From Candidatus Omnitrophota bacterium (GTDB taxonomy: Bacteria > Omnitrophota > Gorgyraeia > Gygaellales > Profunditerraquicolaceae): a stretch of DNA of 64,000 nucleotides. Below are positions 11,906-56,613 of this stretch, in pieces. The stretch's first letter is position 1. Each line of letters starts with the position of its first letter. The position numbers and the translations under genes were made by a program. The notes under the pieces are model-generated. The model was not told the DNA's origin, searched no databases, and saw only the letters and a program-made list of their open reading frames with translations. The stretch spans positions 4,630 through 68,629 of the forward strand of contig JAQUQW010000004.1 in the NCBI GenBank assembly GCA_028716245.1. Reading direction: 5' to 3'.

Positions 11906-12291
11906 TTCTTGCCTTTAAATCCTTCCATCACGCTGTCAGCCAGGACATTGGCAAAAGCAGATTTAAAATCATAGACAGCATTAAAGTCATCCGGGGAATC
12001 GCCTTGCGCCTTAGCTAAGAGTTTTTTCTCGATCATACTAAAAACAATATTGCCGAAATCCCGCGTCTCTCTTATTCCCCAATACGTTAAAACACGGCTG
12101 GCCAGGGCCCCGTACTGGTTAATCGCGTAATCCCGCAGGCCAAAAGCAAGTTCGCCCCCGGAAACATGGGTTTTTCTCTTTAGCTTGTTTTGCGTGAAAT
12201 TCAAGCCCTGCAGCACAAACTCATAGGCATCCGGTTTATACCTTTTGTCCTGATTACAGATTTCCTCAACTAAATCGTAAAATTTACCCAT
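11902..12291 (-). CDS. Hypothetical protein, 129 aa.
   Basis: Intact ORF with an ATG start, overlapping its neighbour by 4 nt. I recognise no domain. Confidence 0.3.
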   Translation of the reverse strand: MGKFYDLVEEICNQDKRYKPDAYEFVLQGLNFTQNKLKRKTHVSGGELAFGLRDYAINQYGALASRVLTYWGIRETRDFGNIVFSMIEKKLLAKAQGDSPDDFNAVYDFKSAFANVLADSVMEGFKGKK

Positions 12292-12763
12292 TATTCCCCT
12301 TAAACAATAACTTTTTATAATCCAACGGTAAGGCGTGCTGATCTGAAATTACGCGCCCGGATTTATCCATAAATACATATGTGGGCACCCCAATAACTTT
12401 ATATTTATCCGCGACCAGCCCATCTCTGTCTAAAAGTATTCCGAAAGTAAGCGCATTACTCATAAAAAATCTCTGCACCTTATAATCCGGCTCTCCGATA
12501 TTAACCGCAAAAACAGTTATCCCCTCTTTTTTCATCTGAGGATACATCTGGTTTAAAATCTTGATCTCCTTGCGGCAGTAGGGACACCAGGTAGTCCAGA
12601 AAAATAAGATTGTTGGCTTTCCGTTATAACTGGAAAGATCCACCGCTTTACCGTCTAAATCATTCAAGATAATATCTCCGGCAGAGGCTGTCTTGGAAAA
12701 ACCTAAAACTAAGAGAATTAAAATAACCAACACCAGTATCCTGTTTTTTTTAAGAAATCCCAC
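12284..12763 (-). CDS. tlpA: TlpA/ResA-like thioredoxin-fold thiol-disulfide oxidoreductase with an N-terminal membrane anchor. The start is corrected to the GTG that overlaps the ccdA stop by 1 nt.
   Basis: WCPYC active site (FFWTTWCPYCRKE). A perfect AAGGAGG RBS lies 5 nt before GTG (aaggaggttctaGTGg), and TAG/GTG overlap. The ORF-track start at 12850 would overlap ccdA by 88 nt. Confidence 0.75.
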   Translation of the reverse strand: MGFLKKNRILVLVILILLVLGFSKTASAGDIILNDLDGKAVDLSSYNGKPTILFFWTTWCPYCRKEIKILNQMYPQMKKEGITVFAVNIGEPDYKVQRFFMSNALTFGILLDRDGLVADKYKVIGVPTYVFMDKSGRVISDQHALPLDYKKLLFKGNNG

Positions 12764-13431
12764 TAGAACCTCCTTATCGCCGTAATAATAAAATATACTC
12801 CCGATAAAACAATGACTGAGGCGCAAATTTTCTTGATTGTAATCATCCATTTACCGGGCTTAGGCAATCCGGTAAGGGCGGGCCCGAAAGTGCCGATAAA
12901 AATAAAAACCAAACCCATCCCGTAAGAAAAACAAAACAAGAGGAACGCCGCGTAAAATACGTTTTTGGTCAGCGCTAAATAAGCCAAAATCGAAGCCAAA
13001 ATCGGGGTAAGGCAGGGTGAGATCATTAATCCTGAAACAAGGCCAAATAATAAAGCCGATAGATAGCTGCCTTTCCTGATGGCCGGGAGTTTTAAATGGG
13101 AAATAAAATTAAACTGCAATAAATCAAACATCGAAAGCCCGAAGATAAATATGACCACCCCCGAAATAAGGCTGACTGCGGGGCTGGAGCTAATTTTACC
13201 GAAAATACTGCCGGTTAACACCGCCAGGATCCCCAGAAAGGAATAAGTAATGGCAATGCCGCTAACATAAGAGAAGCTTAAGAAAAACCCCCTGGTCTTT
13301 GAATTTTGCGCGTGACCGACGATGTAGCCGGCGCTAATCGGGATAAGCGGATAGACGCAGGGCGTCAGGCTGGCCAAAAATCCGCCAAAGAAAGCAATGA
13401 AAAAATCAAATGGGCTGCCTAAGAGATGCAT
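12763..13431 (-). CDS. ccdA: Cytochrome c-type biogenesis protein CcdA (DsbD transmembrane-domain family).
   Basis: Six predicted TM helices and conserved Cys in TM1 and TM4 (LTPCVYPLIP...SPCLTP). Confidence 0.8.
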   Translation of the reverse strand: MHLLGSPFDFFIAFFGGFLASLTPCVYPLIPISAGYIVGHAQNSKTRGFFLSFSYVSGIAITYSFLGILAVLTGSIFGKISSSPAVSLISGVVIFIFGLSMFDLLQFNFISHLKLPAIRKGSYLSALLFGLVSGLMISPCLTPILASILAYLALTKNVFYAAFLLFCFSYGMGLVFIFIGTFGPALTGLPKPGKWMITIKKICASVIVLSGVYFIITAIRRF

Positions 13432-13726
13432 CGATCCACCTTAAATATGGCTTATTCCCGGAAATTACCGGAAGGGCGATAATCTCCGGTACTTTATAGC
13501 TGTGCAAGGACTTGACTAATTTGATAATTGAGGGCAATTTTTCTTTCTTGGATTTAATAACCAGCAAGGATTCTTTAACCCGGTCTATTTTAGCTTCCCA
13601 AAAAAACAGAGAATCGACTTTATCGATGATATTAACACAGGCGGCTAACTTTGCCTTAACCAGGCCAGCGGCAATAATTTGGCCTTCCTTTTTATCGGTT
13701 GCGGTAACCAAAATAACGATATACAT
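13406..13726 (-). CDS. cutA: Divalent-cation tolerance protein CutA.
   Basis: 106 aa matching the CutA1 pattern (IVLVTA...EA..IA..L....LAAC.N....S.YRW.G.I.). Confidence 0.75.
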   Translation of the reverse strand: MYIVILVTATDKKEGQIIAAGLVKAKLAACVNIIDKVDSLFFWEAKIDRVKESLLVIKSKKEKLPSIIKLVKSLHSYKVPEIIALPVISGNKPYLRWIDASLRQPI

Positions 13727-13733
13727 TTTTTTA

Positions 13734-13970
13734 TTATACCATATTCTCCTGGACTTTTATAGACCTGATCCTGCCCAGCTGCGCACAAAGGTCAAAAACC
13801 AAAGCCGGGTCTTCGGTAACCATATTCACCTGATAATTACAGCTTTCCTTCTGCTCCAGGGCTTGGCTTACTACCAAATCATTGCCAAACTCCGCCAGCG
13901 AGTTTTTAATAATTTTTGGCGAGCTGTCCTTGGCGTGTAAAATAAACTCTAGCGCGTATTTGGTTATCAT
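13734..13970 (-). CDS. Hypothetical small protein (78 aa).
   Basis: Intact ORF. I cannot assign a family with confidence. Confidence 0.3.
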   Translation of the reverse strand: MITKYALEFILHAKDSSPKIIKNSLAEFGNDLVVSQALEQKESCNYQVNMVTEDPALVFDLCAQLGRIRSIKVQENMV

Positions 13971-14698
13971 TTGAGCATAATTACTGAAATCAAACGTCCG
14001 GCGCTTTTAGCCTCTTTACGAAAAGAAAAATAATTAGCATTATCGGAGAAAGTACAAAGCTTAGGATCAAAAATATTTTTTTCTTGAACTCCGCAGCCGG
14101 TTAACTGCCTCTGGTTGATTAAAACGATATCCATAAAAACCCGGCCGCTTCGCTTGATCAACCCGAAGGGAAAATTACTTTTAAAATCCTTCTCTACTTC
14201 AAAACAGCAGGAACGGATAGACGGGCCAAACCCAACCAGGAGACTTTGCGGCTGGCTGTCAAAGCTTTCCCGCATAACCCGGATGCCTTCGGCGCAGATA
14301 TTCTTTTCGGTGCCGCGCCAACCCGCGTGTAAAATCGCAATCGCCGGACGCTTGGGGTCATAGATAAAAACCGACAGGCAATCCGCGGTTAATATCGCAA
14401 TAGGCAGACCTCTCTTATCGGTAACAAAACCATCCGTATCGGCAAAAGAACTTTCATAATCCAAAGCCCCCCTGCCCTTGTTTTCTTCGGTTACATATTC
14501 AACATTTTTACCGTGCACCTGCTTAGCGCAGATCAAATCACGGTAATTAATACCGATGGCATCAAGAAATTTTATCCGGTTCTCCAAGGATGCGGCGGTA
14601 TCCCCATAGCATAAAGACATATTCCCGTCCTGCCTTCTGCTAAAAGCCGCGGTTACCGAATTTAACCCGAATTTTTGTAATGGGTTATAAGGCTGCAT
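13967..14698 (-). CDS. pgeF: PgeF/YfiH (DUF152) family purine-nucleoside phosphorylase / laccase-domain protein.
   Basis: Conserved H..GWRG (ILHAGWRGT) and ..ADC.. (LTADCLSV) motifs. Confidence 0.8.
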   Translation of the reverse strand: MQPYNPLQKFGLNSVTAAFSRRQDGNMSLCYGDTAASLENRIKFLDAIGINYRDLICAKQVHGKNVEYVTEENKGRGALDYESSFADTDGFVTDKRGLPIAILTADCLSVFIYDPKRPAIAILHAGWRGTEKNICAEGIRVMRESFDSQPQSLLVGFGPSIRSCCFEVEKDFKSNFPFGLIKRSGRVFMDIVLINQRQLTGCGVQEKNIFDPKLCTFSDNANYFSFRKEAKSAGRLISVIMLK

Positions 14699-14909
14699 CG
14701 ATCTCCACCAGTTTATCGCGCGATTTTTTTCCGCTTTTAATCCTGAGTTGATATTTCTTTATTTTAAAATACTCGCTCAGCAAATCTATCAGCTGGCTGT
14801 TAGCCTGGCCATCACAGGCAGGCCTGGTCAGATGGACCTTCAAAACATTGCCTTTTTGTTCAACATGATTGCGGCTGGCCCGGGGGCAAACGCGGATATT
14901 AAAGATCAT
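14685..14909 (-). CDS. DUF167 (YggU) family protein.
   Basis: 74 aa. LKV.LTRP..DGQAN..L...L...F.I.K..L.I.SGK.SR.K.V.I pattern. Confidence 0.6.
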   Translation of the reverse strand: MIFNIRVCPRASRNHVEQKGNVLKVHLTRPACDGQANSQLIDLLSEYFKIKKYQLRIKSGKKSRDKLVEIDAAL

Positions 14910-14922
14910 CGGTTAAATTTGC

Positions 14923-15852
14923 TTAATGCTCTATTTGTTTAGTATCCTGAATATTGGTCAGGCGTTCAGATACCTTTTCCAAGCGCTTCTGCGCGTCGCT
15001 ATACTTGGTATTGGCATTGACCAGATGGCTGCCCAAAGTATTGAAATCTTCTTTGAATTTATCCGTTTCAATCGAAAGGGAAACTAAGCTTTTTAGAATT
15101 AACTTGGCATTCTCTTCAACTTTTAAGCCGCGTAAACCTAAACAGATTACCTGCAGATAGGCGTAAAATGTGTTCGGGGAAACAGGGATGACTTTCTTAG
15201 ACATACTAAAAGAAAATATATCCTCTTTAATGATTACTTCGTAATAAACATTTTCAGCCGGGATATACATTAAGGCAAAATCATAAGTATTTTCATCGGG
15301 CAAAATATATTTTGCCGCGATTTCGTTAATCCGGTTTTTGATGTCCTGGATGAATTTTTTACGGAATGATTCTTTGGCCGGCTCATCGCTAGCCTCGATC
15401 ATCTTCTGGAAATTCTCCAGGCTGAATTTAGCGTCAACCGGGACCAGCCGTTCGCCAAGCCGGATAACCGCATCAACTGTATCGGAATTTTTAAAACGAT
15501 ATTGGGCCTGATAATGCTCTTTAGGTAATACCTGGGAAAGCAAGTTCTCTAATAAAGTTTCTCCCATTGCCCCGCGGAACTTCGGGGCGCGCAGGAGCTC
15601 CTGAAGGCTGGAAATATCACGGCTAATAGCGATAATCTGCTTATTGGTCTCCTCTAATTTTCCCAGCTGCTCTTTTACGTTTCCAAAGGCAGAGGTGGCG
15701 CTGCCTAAATTCTGGCCAATGATCTTATTGGCCTCCTGCAGGGACTGGTTCATCTGATTCAGGCGCTCATTGACCTGGGAGGATATCTTCAGGACTATCC
15801 CGATGACCAAAACACCGATGACCAAAAATAATAAAACCGCAAGCCATTCCAT
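14923..15852 (-). CDS. rmuC: DNA recombination protein RmuC.
   Basis: N-terminal TM helix, a coiled-coil region, then RGAMGETLLENLL and VPVDAKF motifs as in E. coli RmuC. Confidence 0.8.
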   Translation of the reverse strand: MEWLAVLLFLVIGVLVIGIVLKISSQVNERLNQMNQSLQEANKIIGQNLGSATSAFGNVKEQLGKLEETNKQIIAISRDISSLQELLRAPKFRGAMGETLLENLLSQVLPKEHYQAQYRFKNSDTVDAVIRLGERLVPVDAKFSLENFQKMIEASDEPAKESFRKKFIQDIKNRINEIAAKYILPDENTYDFALMYIPAENVYYEVIIKEDIFSFSMSKKVIPVSPNTFYAYLQVICLGLRGLKVEENAKLILKSLVSLSIETDKFKEDFNTLGSHLVNANTKYSDAQKRLEKVSERLTNIQDTKQIEH

Positions 15853-41756: not shown

Positions 41757-42710
41757 TTGCATGCGAGCCTTGGCTCTGCTATGATTTTAAACATGAGTAA
41801 ACTAAGGGTGGCGGTAATCGGAGTAGGGCATTTAGGCAGTATCCACGCCAAAATATATAAGGAAAGCCCTAATTGCCAGTTAGTGGGGGTCTGCGACACC
41901 AATCCGGAATCTTTAAACCGAACCTGCGCTAATTTAGAAGTAGCAGGATATAGCGACTATAAAAAGCTTTTTGGCAAGGTGGACGCGGTCAGCGTTGCCG
42001 TCCCCACTTTCTTGCATCATAACATTACAACCGAGTTCCTTAAAGCCGGGATTCATACCCTGGTGGAAAAGCCTTTTACTCTAACCCTCAAAGATGCTAA
42101 TGACCTGATTAAGATCGCCGATAGGAATAAGCTGATTCTCCAGGTCGGCCACGTGGAAAGGTTTAACTCTGCCTTCGCCGCTACCCTTAAAATAATTAAC
42201 CTGCCAAAATTTATCGAATGCCACCGCCTTTCCAGCTTTCCTAACCGTTCACTCGACGTAGGCGCTGTGCTGGACATTATGATCCACGATATTGATATTG
42301 TCCTGGGGCTGGTAAGTTCTCCACTAAAGAAAATTGATTCCGTAGGGATAAACGTCCTGACCAAATTTGAAGATATTGCCAATGCCCGCCTGACTTTTAA
42401 AAATGGCTGCGTTGCCAACCTTACCGCGTCCCGGGTATCCGATGACTCCATGCGTAAAATACGTATTTTTCAGGAAGATACTTATATTTCCCTTGATTAT
42501 AAAAACGCCCAAGCCTCGGTTTACCGGAAAATCGGTTTACAGATAACCAAAGAAAACCTGCCCATCGAAAAAGAGCAGCCTCTGCAAAAAGAATTGGAAT
42601 CCTTTATTACCTGCGTTACCAATAAAACTACTCCCCTGGTTTCGGGCCCAATCGCCCGGCAAGCCTTGGCCGTTGCGCTAAAAATCCAAAAACAAATATG
42701 GCACAAATAA
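41757..42710 (+). CDS. Gfo/Idh/MocA-family NAD(P)-dependent oxidoreductase. The true start is possibly the internal MSKLRVAVIGVG at 41793.
   Basis: N-terminal Rossmann motif VAVIGVGHLGSIHAK and the EKP motif (VEKPFTL). Confidence 0.8.
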   Translation: MHASLGSAMILNMSKLRVAVIGVGHLGSIHAKIYKESPNCQLVGVCDTNPESLNRTCANLEVAGYSDYKKLFGKVDAVSVAVPTFLHHNITTEFLKAGIHTLVEKPFTLTLKDANDLIKIADRNKLILQVGHVERFNSAFAATLKIINLPKFIECHRLSSFPNRSLDVGAVLDIMIHDIDIVLGLVSSPLKKIDSVGINVLTKFEDIANARLTFKNGCVANLTASRVSDDSMRKIRIFQEDTYISLDYKNAQASVYRKIGLQITKENLPIEKEQPLQKELESFITCVTNKTTPLVSGPIARQALAVALKIQKQIWHK

Positions 42711-51129: not shown

Positions 51130-51191
51130 ATTTTACGTGAAGAAGGCGTTTGGTGCCGGCAATCCGGCTCCTAAACGCCTTTGTTTTATTA

Positions 51192-51220
51192 ACTATAACA
51201 AAAGCGTTTAAGAATGTCAA
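51192..51220 (-). promoter_or_regulatory. Putative sigma70 promoter TTGACA -17- TATAGT for pyrG-carA-carB'.
   Basis: Minus strand TTGACAttcttaaacgcttttgtTATAGTtaat, ~60 nt upstream of the pyrG ATG. Confidence 0.45.
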
Positions 51221-51284
51221 ACTATTTTTAAAACCTAATACTGCGCGGGTCCTGCCTTTAGCGTCTGTCTTGTCTTGTTTCCTC

Positions 51285-51400
51285 GCGCACCGCTTGCCCC
51301 GCCCCGGCGAGGCGGGGCTGCGCTCGGCCAGAATTTTGCGCTCTGCCAAGCTTCGTAGATAGCCGGGCATCCGTGCCCGCGCAAAATTCTCACGTGCGCT
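51285..51400. repeat. GC-rich block of nested REP-like palindromes.
   Basis: CCCGCC-ccggcga-GGCGGG; 12-bp arms AGAATTTTGCGC ... GCGCAAAATTCT enclosing GGGCA-tccg-TGCCC; GCGCAC ... GTGCGC. It shares the CCGCGCAA(A)TTC motif with the REP-like copies at 28424, 30743 and 36724. No plausible ORF. Confidence 0.4.
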
Positions 51401-51441
51401 CGGAACCAAGCCAAGCCATCCGCTAATACTATATACATAAA

Positions 51442-51655
51442 TGACACTGACAAGTTTCGCAGCGAGTGTCGATTTTAGCCAATGGAGCTTGAGCGAGGAT
51501 ACCCCAAGGCCAACCTTTAGGTTGGCAATCTTGGGATGGCGATGCTGTTTGAGTGGTTTTTGCTAGAGCAAAAACCACGAGTTCAGCAGCCACCGAAATG
51601 CGAAAGACCATTGGCGTTAAGAAATCGACCTCGAGCGAGAAACTTGTCGGGGTCA
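51442..51655. repeat. 214-nt imperfect palindrome (candidate MITE/ERIC-like element or long-hairpin sRNA).
   Basis: ~35-nt arms TGACACTGACAAGTTTCGCAGCGAGTGTCGATTTT(AGCCAATGG) / (CCATTGGCG...)GAAATCGACCTCGAGCGAGAAACTTGTCGGGGTCA. Internal hairpins CCCAAGG[CCAACC-ttta-GGTTGG]caatCTTGGG (51503-51535) and perfect GTGGTTTTTGC-taga-GCAAAAACCAC (51553-51578). Confidence 0.5.
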
Positions 51656-51707
51656 CCTGTAACAGCGCAGGGCGAAAAATTTCAGCGACGGAAGCAAAAG
51701 ATGGAAA

Positions 51708-53039
51708 TCAAACTAAACGCAAATACTCCTTGCCTTCCTTCCAGGGATTGAGGTAACGCTCAATACTCAGACTGTTATCCTGGACCAGATCAACTACGCG
51801 TTTTTTATCTAGGGGTGAGATAATCTCGACTTTTGGCCGCCGGATGTCGGATTCATTTTCATCTTTAACTAATGCAATACTCCCATCATTTAACGCCACG
51901 ATCGAACCAACCGGCCAGAGGCCCATAAATCGAAAAAATTTATCCAGTAACTCCTGATCAAAAGAAGCGCCTCCCTCTTTATTCATTATATTATAGACCA
52001 CGTCAGGAGAATAATCCTGTTTATAGCCCCTTCTTTGGGAAAGGGCATCATAGACATCGCAGATAGAAACAATCCGGGAAGCAATATGCTGCTTTCTTAA
52101 TAAGGGCATCCGGGGGTAACCGGAGGAATCATATTTTAAATGGTGCTCAAAGCTGACGACCACAGGCAAGAGGCCCAAAGTATCTACATATTTAAGCATT
52201 ATCTCCGCCCCCATAATCGTGTGGCTGCGAATACGCCCAAACTCCTGGTCCGTAAGCTTATCGGGTTTATGCAGTATTTTACGCGAAATGAATAGCTTGC
52301 CGATATCATGGAACATGGCGGCAACGCCGATATTTAAAACATCGCTCTTGTCAAAACCCAGGCGCGAAGAAAAATACATGGAAAGAATAGAAACATTGAG
52401 CATATGGATATAGGTCTCCATATCGTATCTTTTTACCGTAGCCAGCTTAAGCAGCTCCTGGCGCTGCGTGCTTAAATTTTCCATAATATTACCCATGGAA
52501 AGTTTAAGCGCAAGATGGTCGATCTTTTCAAAATTAAGCACTCCGCTTAAAGCCTGATTAATCTTATCCGCGGAAGAATCATAAAGACTGCGTTGAGCCG
52601 GGCCAACATCAGCCTTATCTTTTTCGGACCCAACCTTAAGCTTGCCTATATTAATATGCTGGATACCGGCAAGGTTAAGCATCTCCTGAAGATCCCCTTT
52701 AAAATCTTCTTTGGGCCGGGCGATAAATTCGATGAATATGCCCAGCTCATCTTTACTTAACCCGCGCAAAAAAGCAAGCCTTTCGATATTTCTTTCTTTT
52801 AAATATAAGATCGCCGGGCGCAGAAATTTACTCAGATCAAAAAAGATCTCCTTTTCAAAAGCCAGGTCCTCTCCGACAATTCCAATGATCATCTCCTGGC
52901 GCTCTGCCAGGACATCCTCAAAAGACGCATAGGCGCTATCCAAAGACCTGGTAAACATAGGATGCTTCAGGCCGTACATCTTATAAGCCTGAAGACAGGT
53001 AAGTAAACTTTTAAAAGCCGCCTCAATATTAGAAAACAT
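51708..53039 (-). CDS. HD-GYP domain protein (predicted c-di-GMP phosphodiesterase) with a ~190-aa N-terminal domain of unknown function.
   Basis: HD motif (AAMFHDIGK), HHLKYDSSGYP (HD-GYP signature), SICDVYDAL. Confidence 0.8.
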   Translation of the reverse strand: MFSNIEAAFKSLLTCLQAYKMYGLKHPMFTRSLDSAYASFEDVLAERQEMIIGIVGEDLAFEKEIFFDLSKFLRPAILYLKERNIERLAFLRGLSKDELGIFIEFIARPKEDFKGDLQEMLNLAGIQHINIGKLKVGSEKDKADVGPAQRSLYDSSADKINQALSGVLNFEKIDHLALKLSMGNIMENLSTQRQELLKLATVKRYDMETYIHMLNVSILSMYFSSRLGFDKSDVLNIGVAAMFHDIGKLFISRKILHKPDKLTDQEFGRIRSHTIMGAEIMLKYVDTLGLLPVVVSFEHHLKYDSSGYPRMPLLRKQHIASRIVSICDVYDALSQRRGYKQDYSPDVVYNIMNKEGGASFDQELLDKFFRFMGLWPVGSIVALNDGSIALVKDENESDIRRPKVEIISPLDKKRVVDLVQDNSLSIERYLNPWKEGKEYLRLV

Positions 53040-54972
53040 CCCACTCCTTTAAAATCTGTTTGGCCTTATTCCGCATTTTTTTATTCCAAAAAAATCTCAG
53101 GCGAGCCAAATCGCGGATTCGGCCGGCTGCCTCAACGAATCTCAAATCAAAAACAAGCTGCATGTTTTCCATAAGCAAGTCGTTCTTTTTTCCAAAAAAG
53201 TTAGGAATATTAAACAGCACATCCAACCCCTTCTCTCTTGCCTGCGCATCCAATATCAAAACAGAAAACAAGTTCTTTCTAAGCAGGAAGGAATCCGCAC
53301 TTAACTGGCGCATCAAAAAATCAACATCGACTTTTTTAAATTTAGCCATGGCCGTAAGCACCTCGATCTTAATCAATTCATTAGCTGAAGAATAAATATA
53401 TTCTAAAGCCTCCAGGGCTCTAGGGTCGGCAAGCCGGCCTAAAGCATCGATTAAGCCGGCAAGAAACTCCATATCCTGGAGTTTCTGCCCCAGGCGCTGG
53501 TAAAAAGCATCCATTTGCTGCGCAAACAACCTGAAAAATAAACTCACCACCTGATTACCGGGTTTTAGAGAAGCGAATATTTTATCCAAGTAATAACCAA
53601 CATCCTGGCTGGGCGAAGAAACCATATCCAGGAGAAATTCCTGCTGCGGCAAGAGGGATTGGTTTAACGCAATATTTTCGATAAATGCGGAAAGTTTTTT
53701 TTCAAGATTAGCGCATACGCCGATACCCTGTTTTTTTCTTTCCATCAACAGGCTAAAAATACTCTTTAAAAAATCCAGGTCATTATCTTCAAGTATACCG
53801 GCAAACTCTTTCTCTAAAATTTCCCCTGCTAATTCTAGGTTATCCTCATCCCCGGCGGTTGAAAGCATATTTAAAATTATATAATGGTAATTTCCACGAA
53901 GCCTCCGCTGGTCAAAAAATAATCCTCCGGAAGGAGCAATCCCCTTAATTAAAGATTCCAGTGTGTTACGGTATACGGCGGATACCCGGTCATCATGTCC
54001 TGCGGTTAATAAATTCTGGATTCTCTTTAGCGCGTTGGGATTATCTTTTAAATACTGGGATTGCTTTACCCTGGCTAGGAACCCTTCGGCAATCTTCGGA
54101 GGATTTTTCTGCTCGGCGATTTTGGAAAAAAGCTGCAAACTTAAATCATCGAAATTATCCTCCTGGGAAATACCCTCCCAGAGAAGGGCGCTAAAATCCT
54201 CCGCGCTTAAACTATCAAAGACAGGCACCAGCTTTGCCAGTTTTTCTTCATTAAGGGATTTTTTATTGCGTAAGAGCCATAAAAAAAGATCCTTTGAGCA
54301 TTTATCGAACTTTTCCTTATTCTTTCCCCTTAGACAAACCAGGAACTCATGGATATCTGAAGGGACTTCTTCGGTTTCAAGAATATCTTTTTCGCTGCTG
54401 CGTTTGATCAGCGGGCCGAAATCATCGGCCAGTACCTCTAATTTGGCCGGGTCATTACTGTGGGTAGCCTCCTTAAGTATATATCCCCAAATGTCGGCGC
54501 ATTCCTGCCCCTGCTCCTGCAAAAAGGCAGAGTAGTCCAGCTCCCCTATTGTAAAATGAGCAAGCTGTTTATCCTTAAGAATGGCATTAATTCCGCCGCC
54601 TTTAAAAATATCTTTTTGTGACAGGGAGATTACCGAGAGAAACTGGACCAGTTCCTGAAGGCTCACACCGTTTCTAATTTCGAAGCTTTTGATTTTACGC
54701 TGATGCAACAGGCGGGCTAATTCGTCATAGAAACCGCTTTTAGCCAAATTTTTGCCGTCAACCAGGATACCGGTGCTGGTTACCCCGATTCTAAGCGGGT
54801 TTAAAACAGCCAGGGCATCTTCAAGCTTAACCTTAAAGTTTTCAACGGATTTAATAAAATAAGGGTGGTCTTTGGAATAAGAGAAAGCGTTGGTAAGGGC
54901 GACTTTGAGGCTGCGAAAAAAATCTTCTAGTATTTTTTCATTTTCCACAAGTGTTATTCTACAACCAAACAA
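53029..54972 (-). CDS. Hypothetical 647-aa protein. Its N-terminal ~130 aa are paralogous to the N-domain of the adjacent HD-GYP protein. Its C-terminal region is helical-repeat (HEAT/PBS-lyase-like). The start is uncertain (TTG at 54972 or GTG at 54948).
   Basis: Alignment by eye: ILEDFFRSLKVALTNAFSYSKDHPYF...LEDALAVL...IGV against IEAAFKSLLTCLQAYKMYGLKHPMF...FEDVLAER...IGI. There is an 11-nt overlap with the HD-GYP gene. ALGRLADPRALEALEYIY is a HEAT-like repeat. Confidence 0.4.
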   Translation of the reverse strand: MFGCRITLVENEKILEDFFRSLKVALTNAFSYSKDHPYFIKSVENFKVKLEDALAVLNPLRIGVTSTGILVDGKNLAKSGFYDELARLLHQRKIKSFEIRNGVSLQELVQFLSVISLSQKDIFKGGGINAILKDKQLAHFTIGELDYSAFLQEQGQECADIWGYILKEATHSNDPAKLEVLADDFGPLIKRSSEKDILETEEVPSDIHEFLVCLRGKNKEKFDKCSKDLFLWLLRNKKSLNEEKLAKLVPVFDSLSAEDFSALLWEGISQEDNFDDLSLQLFSKIAEQKNPPKIAEGFLARVKQSQYLKDNPNALKRIQNLLTAGHDDRVSAVYRNTLESLIKGIAPSGGLFFDQRRLRGNYHYIILNMLSTAGDEDNLELAGEILEKEFAGILEDNDLDFLKSIFSLLMERKKQGIGVCANLEKKLSAFIENIALNQSLLPQQEFLLDMVSSPSQDVGYYLDKIFASLKPGNQVVSLFFRLFAQQMDAFYQRLGQKLQDMEFLAGLIDALGRLADPRALEALEYIYSSANELIKIEVLTAMAKFKKVDVDFLMRQLSADSFLLRKNLFSVLILDAQAREKGLDVLFNIPNFFGKKNDLLMENMQLVFDLRFVEAAGRIRDLARLRFFWNKKMRNKAKQILKEWDVF

Positions 54973-56613
54973 CTACTCCTGCAACATTTTCTTAGCCTTA
55001 TCGTCTGCTGCATCGGTAATGAAAGATATACCTGTTTCTTTTTCTGTTTGGCGGTTTGCCGAGAAAATATCGCTACGCGTAATTGACTTAAGCGTGAATC
55101 TCCTGGCACCGGCCATTAACTGCTGCAGGCCAGCCGCTAATTTATCGGCCAGCGTCCAGAAGGCAACTGCGCCTAGAGGCACATTTTTCATCTCATTTTT
55201 GCCGACCTTTTTCTGAAGGTCATAATAACCGGCAAAAAGCTCTTCGGCGCTTGTTCCAAGTTCAGCTACTGATGCCGGAAGCTTATCCCAGCTTCCGCTT
55301 ACCCTGGCTTTGGCTGATGGATTCAACACGCCTTCGATATTAGATCCCAGATATGCGGGAATCATTAACGCCCGGCCCATACATACTAATTTGGTATAAG
55401 GAGCTCCTAATGCCAAAGCTTTGAATATATGATCTTCGCGGGCAAGGCCGCCGGCAAAAGCCATAGCCACCACCTTTTTGCCTTTTTTACGTAAAATTTC
55501 CGCGTATTCATAAGCTTTGGAATGCAGCAATATGGAAGGAACGCCCCAGGTTTCCATCATATTCCAAGGGCTCATCCCGGTACCGCCGCCGGAGCCATCA
55601 ATTGTCAGCAGATCAAGCTTGGCATCGGAAGCGTACTTAATCGACATCGCTAAAGCTTCCATCCCGTAAGAACCAGTCTTCAGCGATATTCTCTTATAAC
55701 CGATCTTCCGCAGGTATTTAACTGCTTCCATAAAACTCTCTTCTACCTGCTTCTCCGAAGAAAGGCTGGTATAGCCTAAACGGCTGTGGCGGGCGATAGA
55801 TTTAATCGCTCCCGCTTTAAAAGCATCCTGTACTTCAGGCACGGTAGGATCAGGATCAACAACATATCCCCGTTTTTTAAGAAACTGCGCGTATTCAAGG
55901 CTGGTAACCTGGATCTCTCCGCCGATACATTTGGCGCCCTGGCCCCACTTTAATTCAATAACCACTTTGTCGCCGTATTTACCAATTACGTATTCGGCAA
56001 CCCCGTTACGGGTATCCTCAACATTCATCTGCACGATAATGGCGCCATAGCCGTCGTAATAACGCAGGAACGTCTCGATCCTTCTGTCCAATTCAGGAGC
56101 CTTGAGGATCCTTCCATTTTTAATTTCGGCCTGTTTATCAATACCGACTACATTCTCCCCAACAACGATCGGCACGCCTACCAGGGCCGCGCCGCAAGCA
56201 AAAGACTCCCAGTATTTGGCGGCGACGAAAGTTGAGCCCAGCGCCCCGGTCATTATCGGAACTCTAAATTTGGTTTTAACTGCCTGCCCGAATTCTCCCT
56301 CAATATTCACATTAGGAAAAATACAATCATCTTCGGAATTCGTCAGCCCCTTAGGAAGGCCGTATGCCCCATAATTATAACCGTTAATCCGCAAAGAATT
56401 ATAAGCGACTCCCAAATGAGTTGTGTTTGCGCTTCCGGCGGTAGTAAAACTATAATCCCTTGGATACAGAAGCTTTCTTCCTTTTAAACTGGAAAGCCAG
56501 GTCTCGCATTTACCCATACAGTCTACGCGGCAAAGGGTGCATAACCCGCTCTCACAAGGATTTCCCCGGTTTACCGTACCTAAAGCATCGTTTGTTTTCG
56601 GCCATTGAATCAT
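54973..56613 (-). CDS. FMN-binding glutamate-synthase-family protein (GltB central-domain-like, archaeal-type) with an N-terminal Cys cluster.
   Basis: PCESGLCTLCRVDCMGKCE N-terminal Fe-S motif. LTIDGSGGGTGMSP and FAGGLAREDHIFKALALGA match the GltS FMN-domain signatures. Confidence 0.7.
   Translation of the reverse strand: MIQWPKTNDALGTVNRGNPCESGLCTLCRVDCMGKCETWLSSLKGRKLLYPRDYSFTTAGSANTTHLGVAYNSLRINGYNYGAYGLPKGLTNSEDDCIFPNVNIEGEFGQAVKTKFRVPIMTGALGSTFVAAKYWESFACGAALVGVPIVVGENVVGIDKQAEIKNGRILKAPELDRRIETFLRYYDGYGAIIVQMNVEDTRNGVAEYVIGKYGDKVVIELKWGQGAKCIGGEIQVTSLEYAQFLKKRGYVVDPDPTVPEVQDAFKAGAIKSIARHSRLGYTSLSSEKQVEESFMEAVKYLRKIGYKRISLKTGSYGMEALAMSIKYASDAKLDLLTIDGSGGGTGMSPWNMMETWGVPSILLHSKAYEYAEILRKKGKKVVAMAFAGGLAREDHIFKALALGAPYTKLVCMGRALMIPAYLGSNIEGVLNPSAKARVSGSWDKLPASVAELGTSAEELFAGYYDLQKKVGKNEMKNVPLGAVAFWTLADKLAAGLQQLMAGARRFTLKSITRSDIFSANRQTEKETGISFITDAADDKAKKMLQE

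Follow-up and report, generated by a model that had tools for sequence, protein, structure and literature searches.

Uncultured bacteria of the phylum Omnitrophota carry a pair of overlapping genes whose products share an N-terminal domain (N-domain), one of them being an HD-GYP protein and the other a HEAT-like helical protein. HD-GYP proteins are a less understood class of phosphodiesterases acting on cyclic di-GMP (c-di-GMP). We studied the pair in a 64,000-nucleotide (nt) stretch from a Candidatus Omnitrophota bacterium (assembly GCA_028716245.1, contig JAQUQW010000004.1, positions 4,630 to 68,629 of the forward strand), which is designated as the window and from whose first letter all coordinates are counted. 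Gene A (51708..53039, minus strand) has an ATG start and encodes 443 amino acids (aa; NCBI MDD5477906.1, 'HD domain-containing protein'), while gene B (53029..54948, minus strand) has a GTG start and encodes 639 aa (MDD5477907.1, 'HEAT repeat domain-containing protein'). We propose, with belief and doubt about evenly balanced, that B and A constitute an autonomous bicistronic operon encoding two subunits of one signaling enzyme that are paired through their N-domains. This two-subunit reading is based on the paralogy of the N-domains, the strict co-inheritance of the genes, their coupling geometry, and the tendency of HD-GYP N-terminal regions to mediate dimerization or regulation (Galperin & Chou, bioRxiv 10.1101/2021.11.05.467447).

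According to the proposed mechanism, a sigma-70-type promoter belonging to the operon would drive its transcription, probably into a leaderless mRNA, and the gene overlap together with a Shine-Dalgarno sequence would make the translation of A depend on that of B, so that both subunits are produced in matching quantities. Subunit A would be a catalytically competent HD-GYP phosphodiesterase, which is predicted to convert c-di-GMP to pGpG and then to GMP. Subunit B would be its non-catalytic partner, in which a paralogous copy of the A N-domain is fused to a HEAT-like solenoid of ~490 residues. Pairing of the N-domains would produce a pseudo-symmetric heterodimer, replacing the N-domain-promoted homodimer of other HD-GYP enzymes, and the solenoid would provide the enzyme with a large protein-binding surface that gates, localizes, or targets cyclic-dinucleotide hydrolysis. 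Heterodimerization through the shared domain is plausible and is the best inference that we can offer.

The shared N-domain and the conserved gene pair

The N-domain of A (residues 1–140; 52620..53039, minus strand) is homologous to that of B (residues 1–144; 54517..54948, minus strand), which consists of an alpha-hairpin followed by a mixed alpha/beta unit. BLASTP aligned residues 5–134 of A with residues 15–145 of B (29% identity over 140 aa, E = 1e-7), and hhalign comparison of the two N-domain family alignments, each comprising the first 150 residues of 21 sequences from genomes of two phyla, gave a probability of 97.7% and E = 1.9e-12 over 135 columns. A first-pass annotation, which was made from the window sequence alone, had proposed this homology; the alignment statistics bear it out, and the motifs it listed (F.SL, HP.F, ED.L, IG, and G.S..EL..F) are all visible in the BLASTP alignment. 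Y22, H26, E98, and F102 (A numbering) are invariant in the N-domains of both A and B, and R83 is nearly so.

The same annotation could not place the domain in a known family, and our searches agree with it on this point. No Pfam or NCBIfam model matched the N-domain in the family members tested, sequence-profile searches of the PDB with the N-domain gave no match, and a Foldseek search of all PDB chains returned none at E <= 0.001, the best template modeling (TM) score being 0.33. The A N-domain had no Pfam GAF match, and its Foldseek comparison with GAF structures gave E >= 0.46 and TM <= 0.2. DUF3391 (PF11871), a common N-terminal domain of unknown function in HD-GYP proteins, had no match at E <= 1 in six family members, and we rejected identity with this domain on the grounds of a different topology and the missing hidden Markov model (HMM) match. 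The 2021 census of HD-GYP proteins leaves many N-terminal regions without a defined domain and reports that in most of these enzymes no domain is recognized there (Galperin & Chou, bioRxiv 10.1101/2021.11.05.467447). AlphaFold2 (AF2) modeled the N-domain alone with a mean predicted local distance difference test (pLDDT) score of 91.2 and a predicted TM score (pTM) of 0.85, in the order of two long helices, beta-beta, alpha, beta, three short helices, and a final beta. Taking the model into account, we regard the N-domain as an undescribed domain family with a confident predicted fold.

A balanced A+B N-domain profile searched against 1.84 billion representative proteins found 5,796 clusters at E <= 1e-3, 1,663 of which remained when the threshold was set to 1e-10 and 149 when it was set to 1e-30. 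These numbers make it a large superfamily. The best 150 of the 5,796 clusters were all A-type (~440–455 aa), B-type (~640 aa), or fragments. A search for homologous proteins with the A-family N-domain profile yielded 32 fragments, usable as profile rows only. When A was compared by tblastn with 72,556 plasmids to look for the N-domain in cultured bacteria, 602 HD-GYP matches were obtained, none of which covered residues 1–84 in the N-domain.

A pattern scan of the GTDB species representatives identified 71 loci with a B homolog, mostly in Omnitrophota and about a dozen in Aminicenantes. Downstream DNA was available for 65 of them, and in 64 of these 65 loci, spanning both phyla, a full-length A that included the N-domain immediately followed B. 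The pair thus co-occurs in other genomes, which the first-pass annotation had named as a check on its proposal. Identities across the related loci were 28–83% for B and 43–92% for A. Beyond the main pairs, local HMM scans over 1.7 Mb of related loci detected only one further A ortholog and two extra, divergent B–A pairs, both of which adjoin the main pair in Aminicenantes genomes. One of these extra pairs is located in L061 (12896-16272). The other, in L046 (B' 12143-14095 and A' 13953-15566), has the same layout as the main pair but is far more divergent, and both of its N-domains were recognized with E ~ 1e-13 by local search. In the L046 pair, Asn replaces the conserved His of Y-x3-H, and the HEAT repeats are canonical. 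An apparent 909-aa B–A fusion (L025:7962-10688) was rejected as an artefact, in that a run of 100 N happens to keep the frame; this pseudo-fusion in a public metagenome-assembled genome could be mistaken for a Rosetta-stone fusion.

In the window, the stop codon of B (TAA, 53031-53029) and the start codon of A (ATG, 53039-53037) lie within an 11-nt overlap (53029..53039, minus strand), and the Shine-Dalgarno sequence of A, AAGGAG (53044..53049, minus strand), is located within the 3' end of B. The arrangement AAGGAG-TGGA-ATG recurs in most loci. Among the 65 loci, 39 have an overlap of 11 nt, 16 have one of 17 nt, and 6 have one of 8 nt; these three lengths, which together account for 61 loci, all keep A in one frame relative to B. 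Overlaps of 4, 10, and 13 nt occur in one locus each, and a 122-nt gap separates the genes in L045. Translational coupling had been claimed from the window sequence; the conserved overlap and the Shine-Dalgarno sequence inside B fit this claim, and we infer from them that A is translationally coupled to B.

The start of B required revision. The open reading frames (ORFs) listed on the minus strand were a 443-aa ORF (51708-53039, ATG) and a 647-aa ORF (53029-54972, TTG), and the first-pass annotation accordingly described an 11-nt overlap of a 647-aa protein with the HD-GYP protein, with no spacer before its upstream neighbor. The overlap was confirmed by the sequence, but the true length of B is 639 aa. 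Most B homologs have this length and a start codon equivalent to GTG 54948, and the NCBI annotation agrees. Because B starts at GTG 54948 and not at TTG 54972, a spacer of 24 nt separates it from the upstream gene. TTG 54972 is located within the promoter spacer of the operon, and we rejected it as a start, together with 'FGCRITLV' as a coding sequence: this conserved pseudo-peptide is the promoter, which happens to be in frame here and falls in other frames or contains stop codons elsewhere. The missing spacer was likewise an artefact of an ORF extended into the conserved promoter.

Predicted properties of the two proteins

Pfam matched only HD_5/HD in A (residues 209–364). The closest solved relative of the catalytic domain (residues ~185–370; 51930..52487, minus strand) is PmGH (4MCW), whose residues 166–353 align with residues 185–370 of A with E = 3.6e-25. 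The HD-superfamily metal-ligand pattern H...HD...H...HH...D is present in A, and every ligand aligns with PmGH. H212, H244-D245, K248, H273, H299-H300, Y308, R337, and K340 are invariant in all 57 A orthologs, and D328 (56/57), P309 (56/57), and G307 of the GYP motif (54/57) are near-invariant. The invariant positions include the substrate-binding RxxK motif (R337 and K340) and the Lys after HD (K248); their roles, and the interpretation of the conserved residues, follow Galperin & Chou (bioRxiv 10.1101/2021.11.05.467447). The signature HHExh(D/N)GxGYP occurs as a variant, EHHLKYDSSGYP, with HH, D304, and G-Y-P conserved; in place of the Glu after HH, the whole A family has Leu or Met, and an invariant Glu precedes HH. 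We take HHL/HHM to be a variant of the motif and not its loss.

All eight ligands of the trinuclear site of PmGH align with residues of the window A. The third-metal ligand E208, which is equivalent to PmGH E185, is retained in 35 of the 57 orthologs and replaced by T, I, or G in the others, and the third-metal Glu is therefore a clade-specific trait. Since E208 predicts a trinuclear metal site, conversion of c-di-GMP to GMP is predicted for the window protein. On sequence grounds, A looks like an active HD-GYP enzyme because its seven core metal ligands, the RxxK motif, and YP of GYP show little or no variation; its substrate may be c-di-GMP or, as the first-pass annotation allowed, a molecule of the cGAMP type. 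The catalytic domain is followed by a C-terminal extension (residues 371–443, GLWPVGSIVALNDGS...; 51711..51929, minus strand), in which G373, W375, and P376 are invariant. Some HD-GYP proteins from cultured bacteria can be aligned over this extension as well, the tblastn matches in plasmid-borne HD-GYP genes reaching query residue 428. Neither A nor B matched any PADLOC model of anti-phage defense, and a defense-system reading was rejected on this basis.

The AF2 model of B, which was built from a 65-sequence alignment and has a pLDDT of 86, consists of three parts: an alpha/beta N-domain (residues 1–143), a low-confidence linker (146–149), and an all-alpha part (153–636). The last of these (53041..54492, minus strand) is an alpha-alpha solenoid of irregular HEAT/ARM-like repeats and matches classical scaffolding HEAT proteins. 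HEAT_2 of Pfam gave B an E value of 4e-4 and 21 bits, under the 27.7 cut-off, whereas the divergent paralog B' of L046 scored 58.7 bits, above it. The weak HEAT_2/NblB-like stretch of B (ALGRLADPRALEALEYIY...; 53290..53469, minus strand) is a sub-threshold sequence match, and the NCBIfam equivalog model NF045915 for NblB/PBS-lyase gave B 18 bits against a cut-off of 300, which does not support membership in that family. As to the first-pass description of B as an N-domain plus helical repeats ending in a HEAT/PBS-lyase-like sequence, the HEAT-like scaffold stands, but ~85 residues follow the HEAT-like stretch. B has no catalytic domain, and its solenoid match suggests that it is a scaffold.

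Within B, conservation is highest in the N-domain, which suggests that this domain matters in the protein. The B-specific invariant motifs are H82-x-RK-x-K and E136-LDYS...W154, and the segment containing the latter (residues 136–154, nt ~54487-54543, EELDYS..L..GEGEE..DIW) also ranks with the best-conserved stretches of B. Residues 141–150 have the lowest model confidence, with a block mean pLDDT of 51. This segment may be an interaction motif.

Promoter and flanking sequences

B is preceded by a -35-like hexamer TTGCAG (54979..54984, minus strand), which overlaps the last codons of the upstream gene, and, after 17 nt, by a -10 hexamer TAGAAT (54956..54961, minus strand), which is followed by AACACTT and the GTG codon. 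The motif TTGCnn - 17 nt - TA[A/G]AAT was found upstream of B in all 41 close-clade Omnitrophota loci, and 7 nt separate the -10 hexamer from the GTG/ATG start in 36 of them; the distance is 6 nt in four loci and 8 nt in one. Since the motif appears in differing reading frames and many genomes have stop codons within it, it is non-coding. A simple promoter scanner made no call upstream of B because only 8 of 12 consensus positions match. The fixed distance between the -10 hexamer and the start codon predicts a leaderless transcript or one with a 1-nt leader; the B–A mRNA is thus probably leaderless, its first nucleotide coinciding with the start codon or preceding it by 1 nt, and such a fixed geometry offers a clean candidate case of leaderless expression in Omnitrophota. 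The presence of this promoter in every close-clade locus, together with a separate strong promoter for the downstream pyrG, supports the autonomy of the operon. Elsewhere in the window (~41760-41795, plus strand), the same promoter-to-start geometry, TTGCAT-17-TATGAT followed by 7 nt and ATG, heads a 305-aa ORF starting at 41793, which suggests that the genome may have further leaderless starts.

The gene upstream of B is GltB-like (54973-56613; MDD5477908.1, 'glutamate synthase-related protein'). A gene of this type occupies the position in about 17 Omnitrophota loci, a glutamate dehydrogenase gene does so in many others, and there is nothing in L022. The slot between an NfnB/GltA-like gene and B accordingly varies among the window, L005, L013, L036, and L022, containing a GltB-like gene, a glutamate dehydrogenase gene, or nothing. 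None of the HydG, NfnAB-like, and GltB-like genes accompanies the Aminicenantes pairs. This glutamate-metabolism slot of Omnitrophota looks unrelated to the pair.

The 578-nt spacer between A and pyrG contains a candidate structured RNA of ~200 nt (51435-51656, minus strand), identified by folding and covariation. Its folding energy is -120.2 kcal/mol, compared with -82.2 +/- 4.2 kcal/mol for shuffled sequences (z = -9.0). L041 and at least 120 metagenome contigs each contain one copy of its 27-nt core, and the neighboring genes differ between contigs. RNAalifold predicted 35 pairs from 40 diverse copies, 17 of them with compensatory changes; 95.5% of the cells were paired, compared with 82.6% in shuffles and 33–46% in slid controls, and 189 cells had double changes, compared with 64 in shuffles. 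Because the G-U pairs are invariant, the given strand is the transcribed one. Rfam 15 had no match to the isolated region at E <= 10, and ARAGORN found nothing. The element looks like an undescribed, single-copy structured non-coding RNA (ncRNA) of this lineage, possibly a new ncRNA of housekeeping type, for which a 6S-like role is one possibility.

In L001, the closest relative, the whole ~430-nt segment bearing this RNA (window 51225-51690) is present at the same site in the opposite orientation (L001:11280-11725; 82% identical to the reverse complement), whereas the sequences on either side, among them the promoter and leader of pyrG, are collinear; this points to inversion or independent insertion. 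Within the promoter and leader region of pyrG (51130-51225, minus strand), the promoter (51220-51192), which was called by the simple scanner, reads TTGACA-17-TATAGT with a TG extension and matches 11 of 12 consensus positions. The leader that follows is near-identical in L001; it has a hairpin, AAAGGCGTTT...AAACGCCTT, and may be a pyrG attenuator.

Alternative explanations and relation to known systems

Several points weigh against the two-subunit proposal. The canonical HHE is replaced by HHL in the A family. The highly conserved, low-pLDDT segment 136–154 of B has no counterpart in A, so B has functions beyond those in the model. The 57 A–B sequence pairs are too few for coevolution analysis, and the N-domain could be a sensor and not a pairing module. 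The best 150 of the 5,796 N-domain clusters were those inspected, and the domain may occur in other architectures, which would alter the picture.

The sensor view is the strongest of the rivals, although we consider it rather doubtful. It holds that the N-domain senses a small molecule or metal and is used in parallel by the two proteins without A–B contact: A would turn the signal into cyclic-dinucleotide hydrolysis and B into altered solenoid binding, and co-expression would supply both with one input. The N-terminal domains of HD-GYP proteins are generally assumed to be sensors (Galperin & Chou, bioRxiv 10.1101/2021.11.05.467447), Y-x3-H, E98, and F102 are conserved in both families, and the additional invariant residues of B (H28, H82, D138, and Y139) could bind a ligand. 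The non-significant Foldseek list is also enriched in GAF and Cache-type sensor domains, but its TM scores of 0.33 or less are not meaningful. Moreover, no pocket or ligand was identified, the His of Y-x3-H is Asn in the divergent L046 pair, and tight coupling over a large evolutionary distance is more typical of the subunits of one complex. Alternatively, B may act downstream of A as a cyclic-dinucleotide receptor or effector, or as a handler of the product pGpG, and not as a regulator. c-di-GMP receptors are very diverse, with many still being discovered (ComFB paper), and B has a conserved basic patch, H-x-RK-x-K. However, B has no recognizable PilZ, MshEN, I-site, or degenerate GGDEF/EAL/HD-GYP motif, and the occurrence of the N-domain of A on B is left unexplained, so that we consider this role unlikely; a scan of the window for GGDEF, EAL, and PilZ motifs was uninformative.

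Still less probable is that B serves as an assembly or stabilizing factor for A, for example in loading of the metal center, as do some HEAT-repeat lyases and chaperones. HD-GYP activity depends on an Fe(II)/Mn(II) center, and B weakly resembles the HEAT repeats of PBS-lyase and NblB; the NblB score is nevertheless far from its cut-off, other HD-GYP enzymes need no such factor, and a 1:1 coupled partner with a shared domain would be unusual for a catalytic chaperone. The first-pass annotation had suggested that the upstream GltB-like protein, with its iron-sulfur (Fe-S) and flavin mononucleotide (FMN) cofactors, feeds a redox signal to the pair within one operon. The GltB-like gene adjoins the pair in the window and about 17 related loci, but the zero spacer was an artefact of ORF calling, most Omnitrophota loci have a glutamate dehydrogenase gene or nothing at this position, and no Aminicenantes pair has the GltB-like gene beside it. 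Because the GltB-like gene is not conserved with the pair, the redox link is without comparative support, and since B keeps its own promoter with or without this gene upstream, we rejected the operon link and consider the idea very improbable.

The strictly co-inherited HEAT partner leads to a concrete hypothesis, namely heteromeric regulation or targeting of cyclic-dinucleotide hydrolysis. A broader version is that the N-domain is a new, widespread pairing module, which joins an active HD-GYP enzyme to a catalytically inert HEAT-solenoid paralog, and that the pair forms an obligate heterodimeric cyclic-dinucleotide phosphodiesterase whose activity or address is set by the binding partners of the solenoid. 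This would be a subunit architecture not described for any c-di-GMP-metabolizing enzyme; we put the broader version forward tentatively, as something that may well not hold. The pair occurs in Omnitrophota and Aminicenantes, two large uncultured lineages in which signaling is essentially unstudied. Full-text literature searches found no report of an HD-GYP enzyme with a HEAT partner, and HD-GYP in these two phyla appeared only as census mentions.

Among the known systems, the Bd1817 family (DUF3391-HD-GYP; Bdellovibrio Bd1817, PDB 3TM8; Pseudomonas aeruginosa PA4108; Vibrio cholerae VC2497) resembles A in that its members are soluble, are similar in size, and have an N-terminal domain of ~120–140 aa of unknown function, a helical linker, and HD-GYP. 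The topology is reversed, however: two long helices come first in the N-domain, whereas DUF3391 has four strands and then two long helices, and the A N-domain has no PF11871 match even at E <= 1. Literature searches turned up no HEAT-repeat partner sharing the N-terminal domain for this family. PmGH (GAF-HD-GYP, Persephonella marina, 4MCW) shares the catalytic domain and all eight trinuclear-site ligands with A, but its N-terminal domain is a GAF domain, unlike that of A, and it is a homodimer without a dedicated partner. In RpfG with its GGDEF/PilZ partners and in the PdeR-DgcM-MlrA trigger module of Escherichia coli, the output of a c-di-GMP phosphodiesterase depends on protein-protein contacts, which is the concept proposed here; the partners in these systems, however, are unrelated in sequence to the sensor domain of the enzyme, are not coupled paralogs, and have no HEAT solenoid. 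As for the HEAT_2/PBS-lyase-type proteins CpcE/F and NblB, the match of B is far below the cut-offs, the N-domain of B (144 aa) is not of the HEAT type, its solenoid of ~490 residues is irregular, and its context is cyclic-dinucleotide signaling and not phycobilisomes. Compared with all of these, what is new here is an N-terminal domain family on an HD-GYP phosphodiesterase together with a dedicated paralogous partner; the theme itself is known, and the pair is a variation on the combination of a sensor or partner domain with HD-GYP and not a new kind of system.

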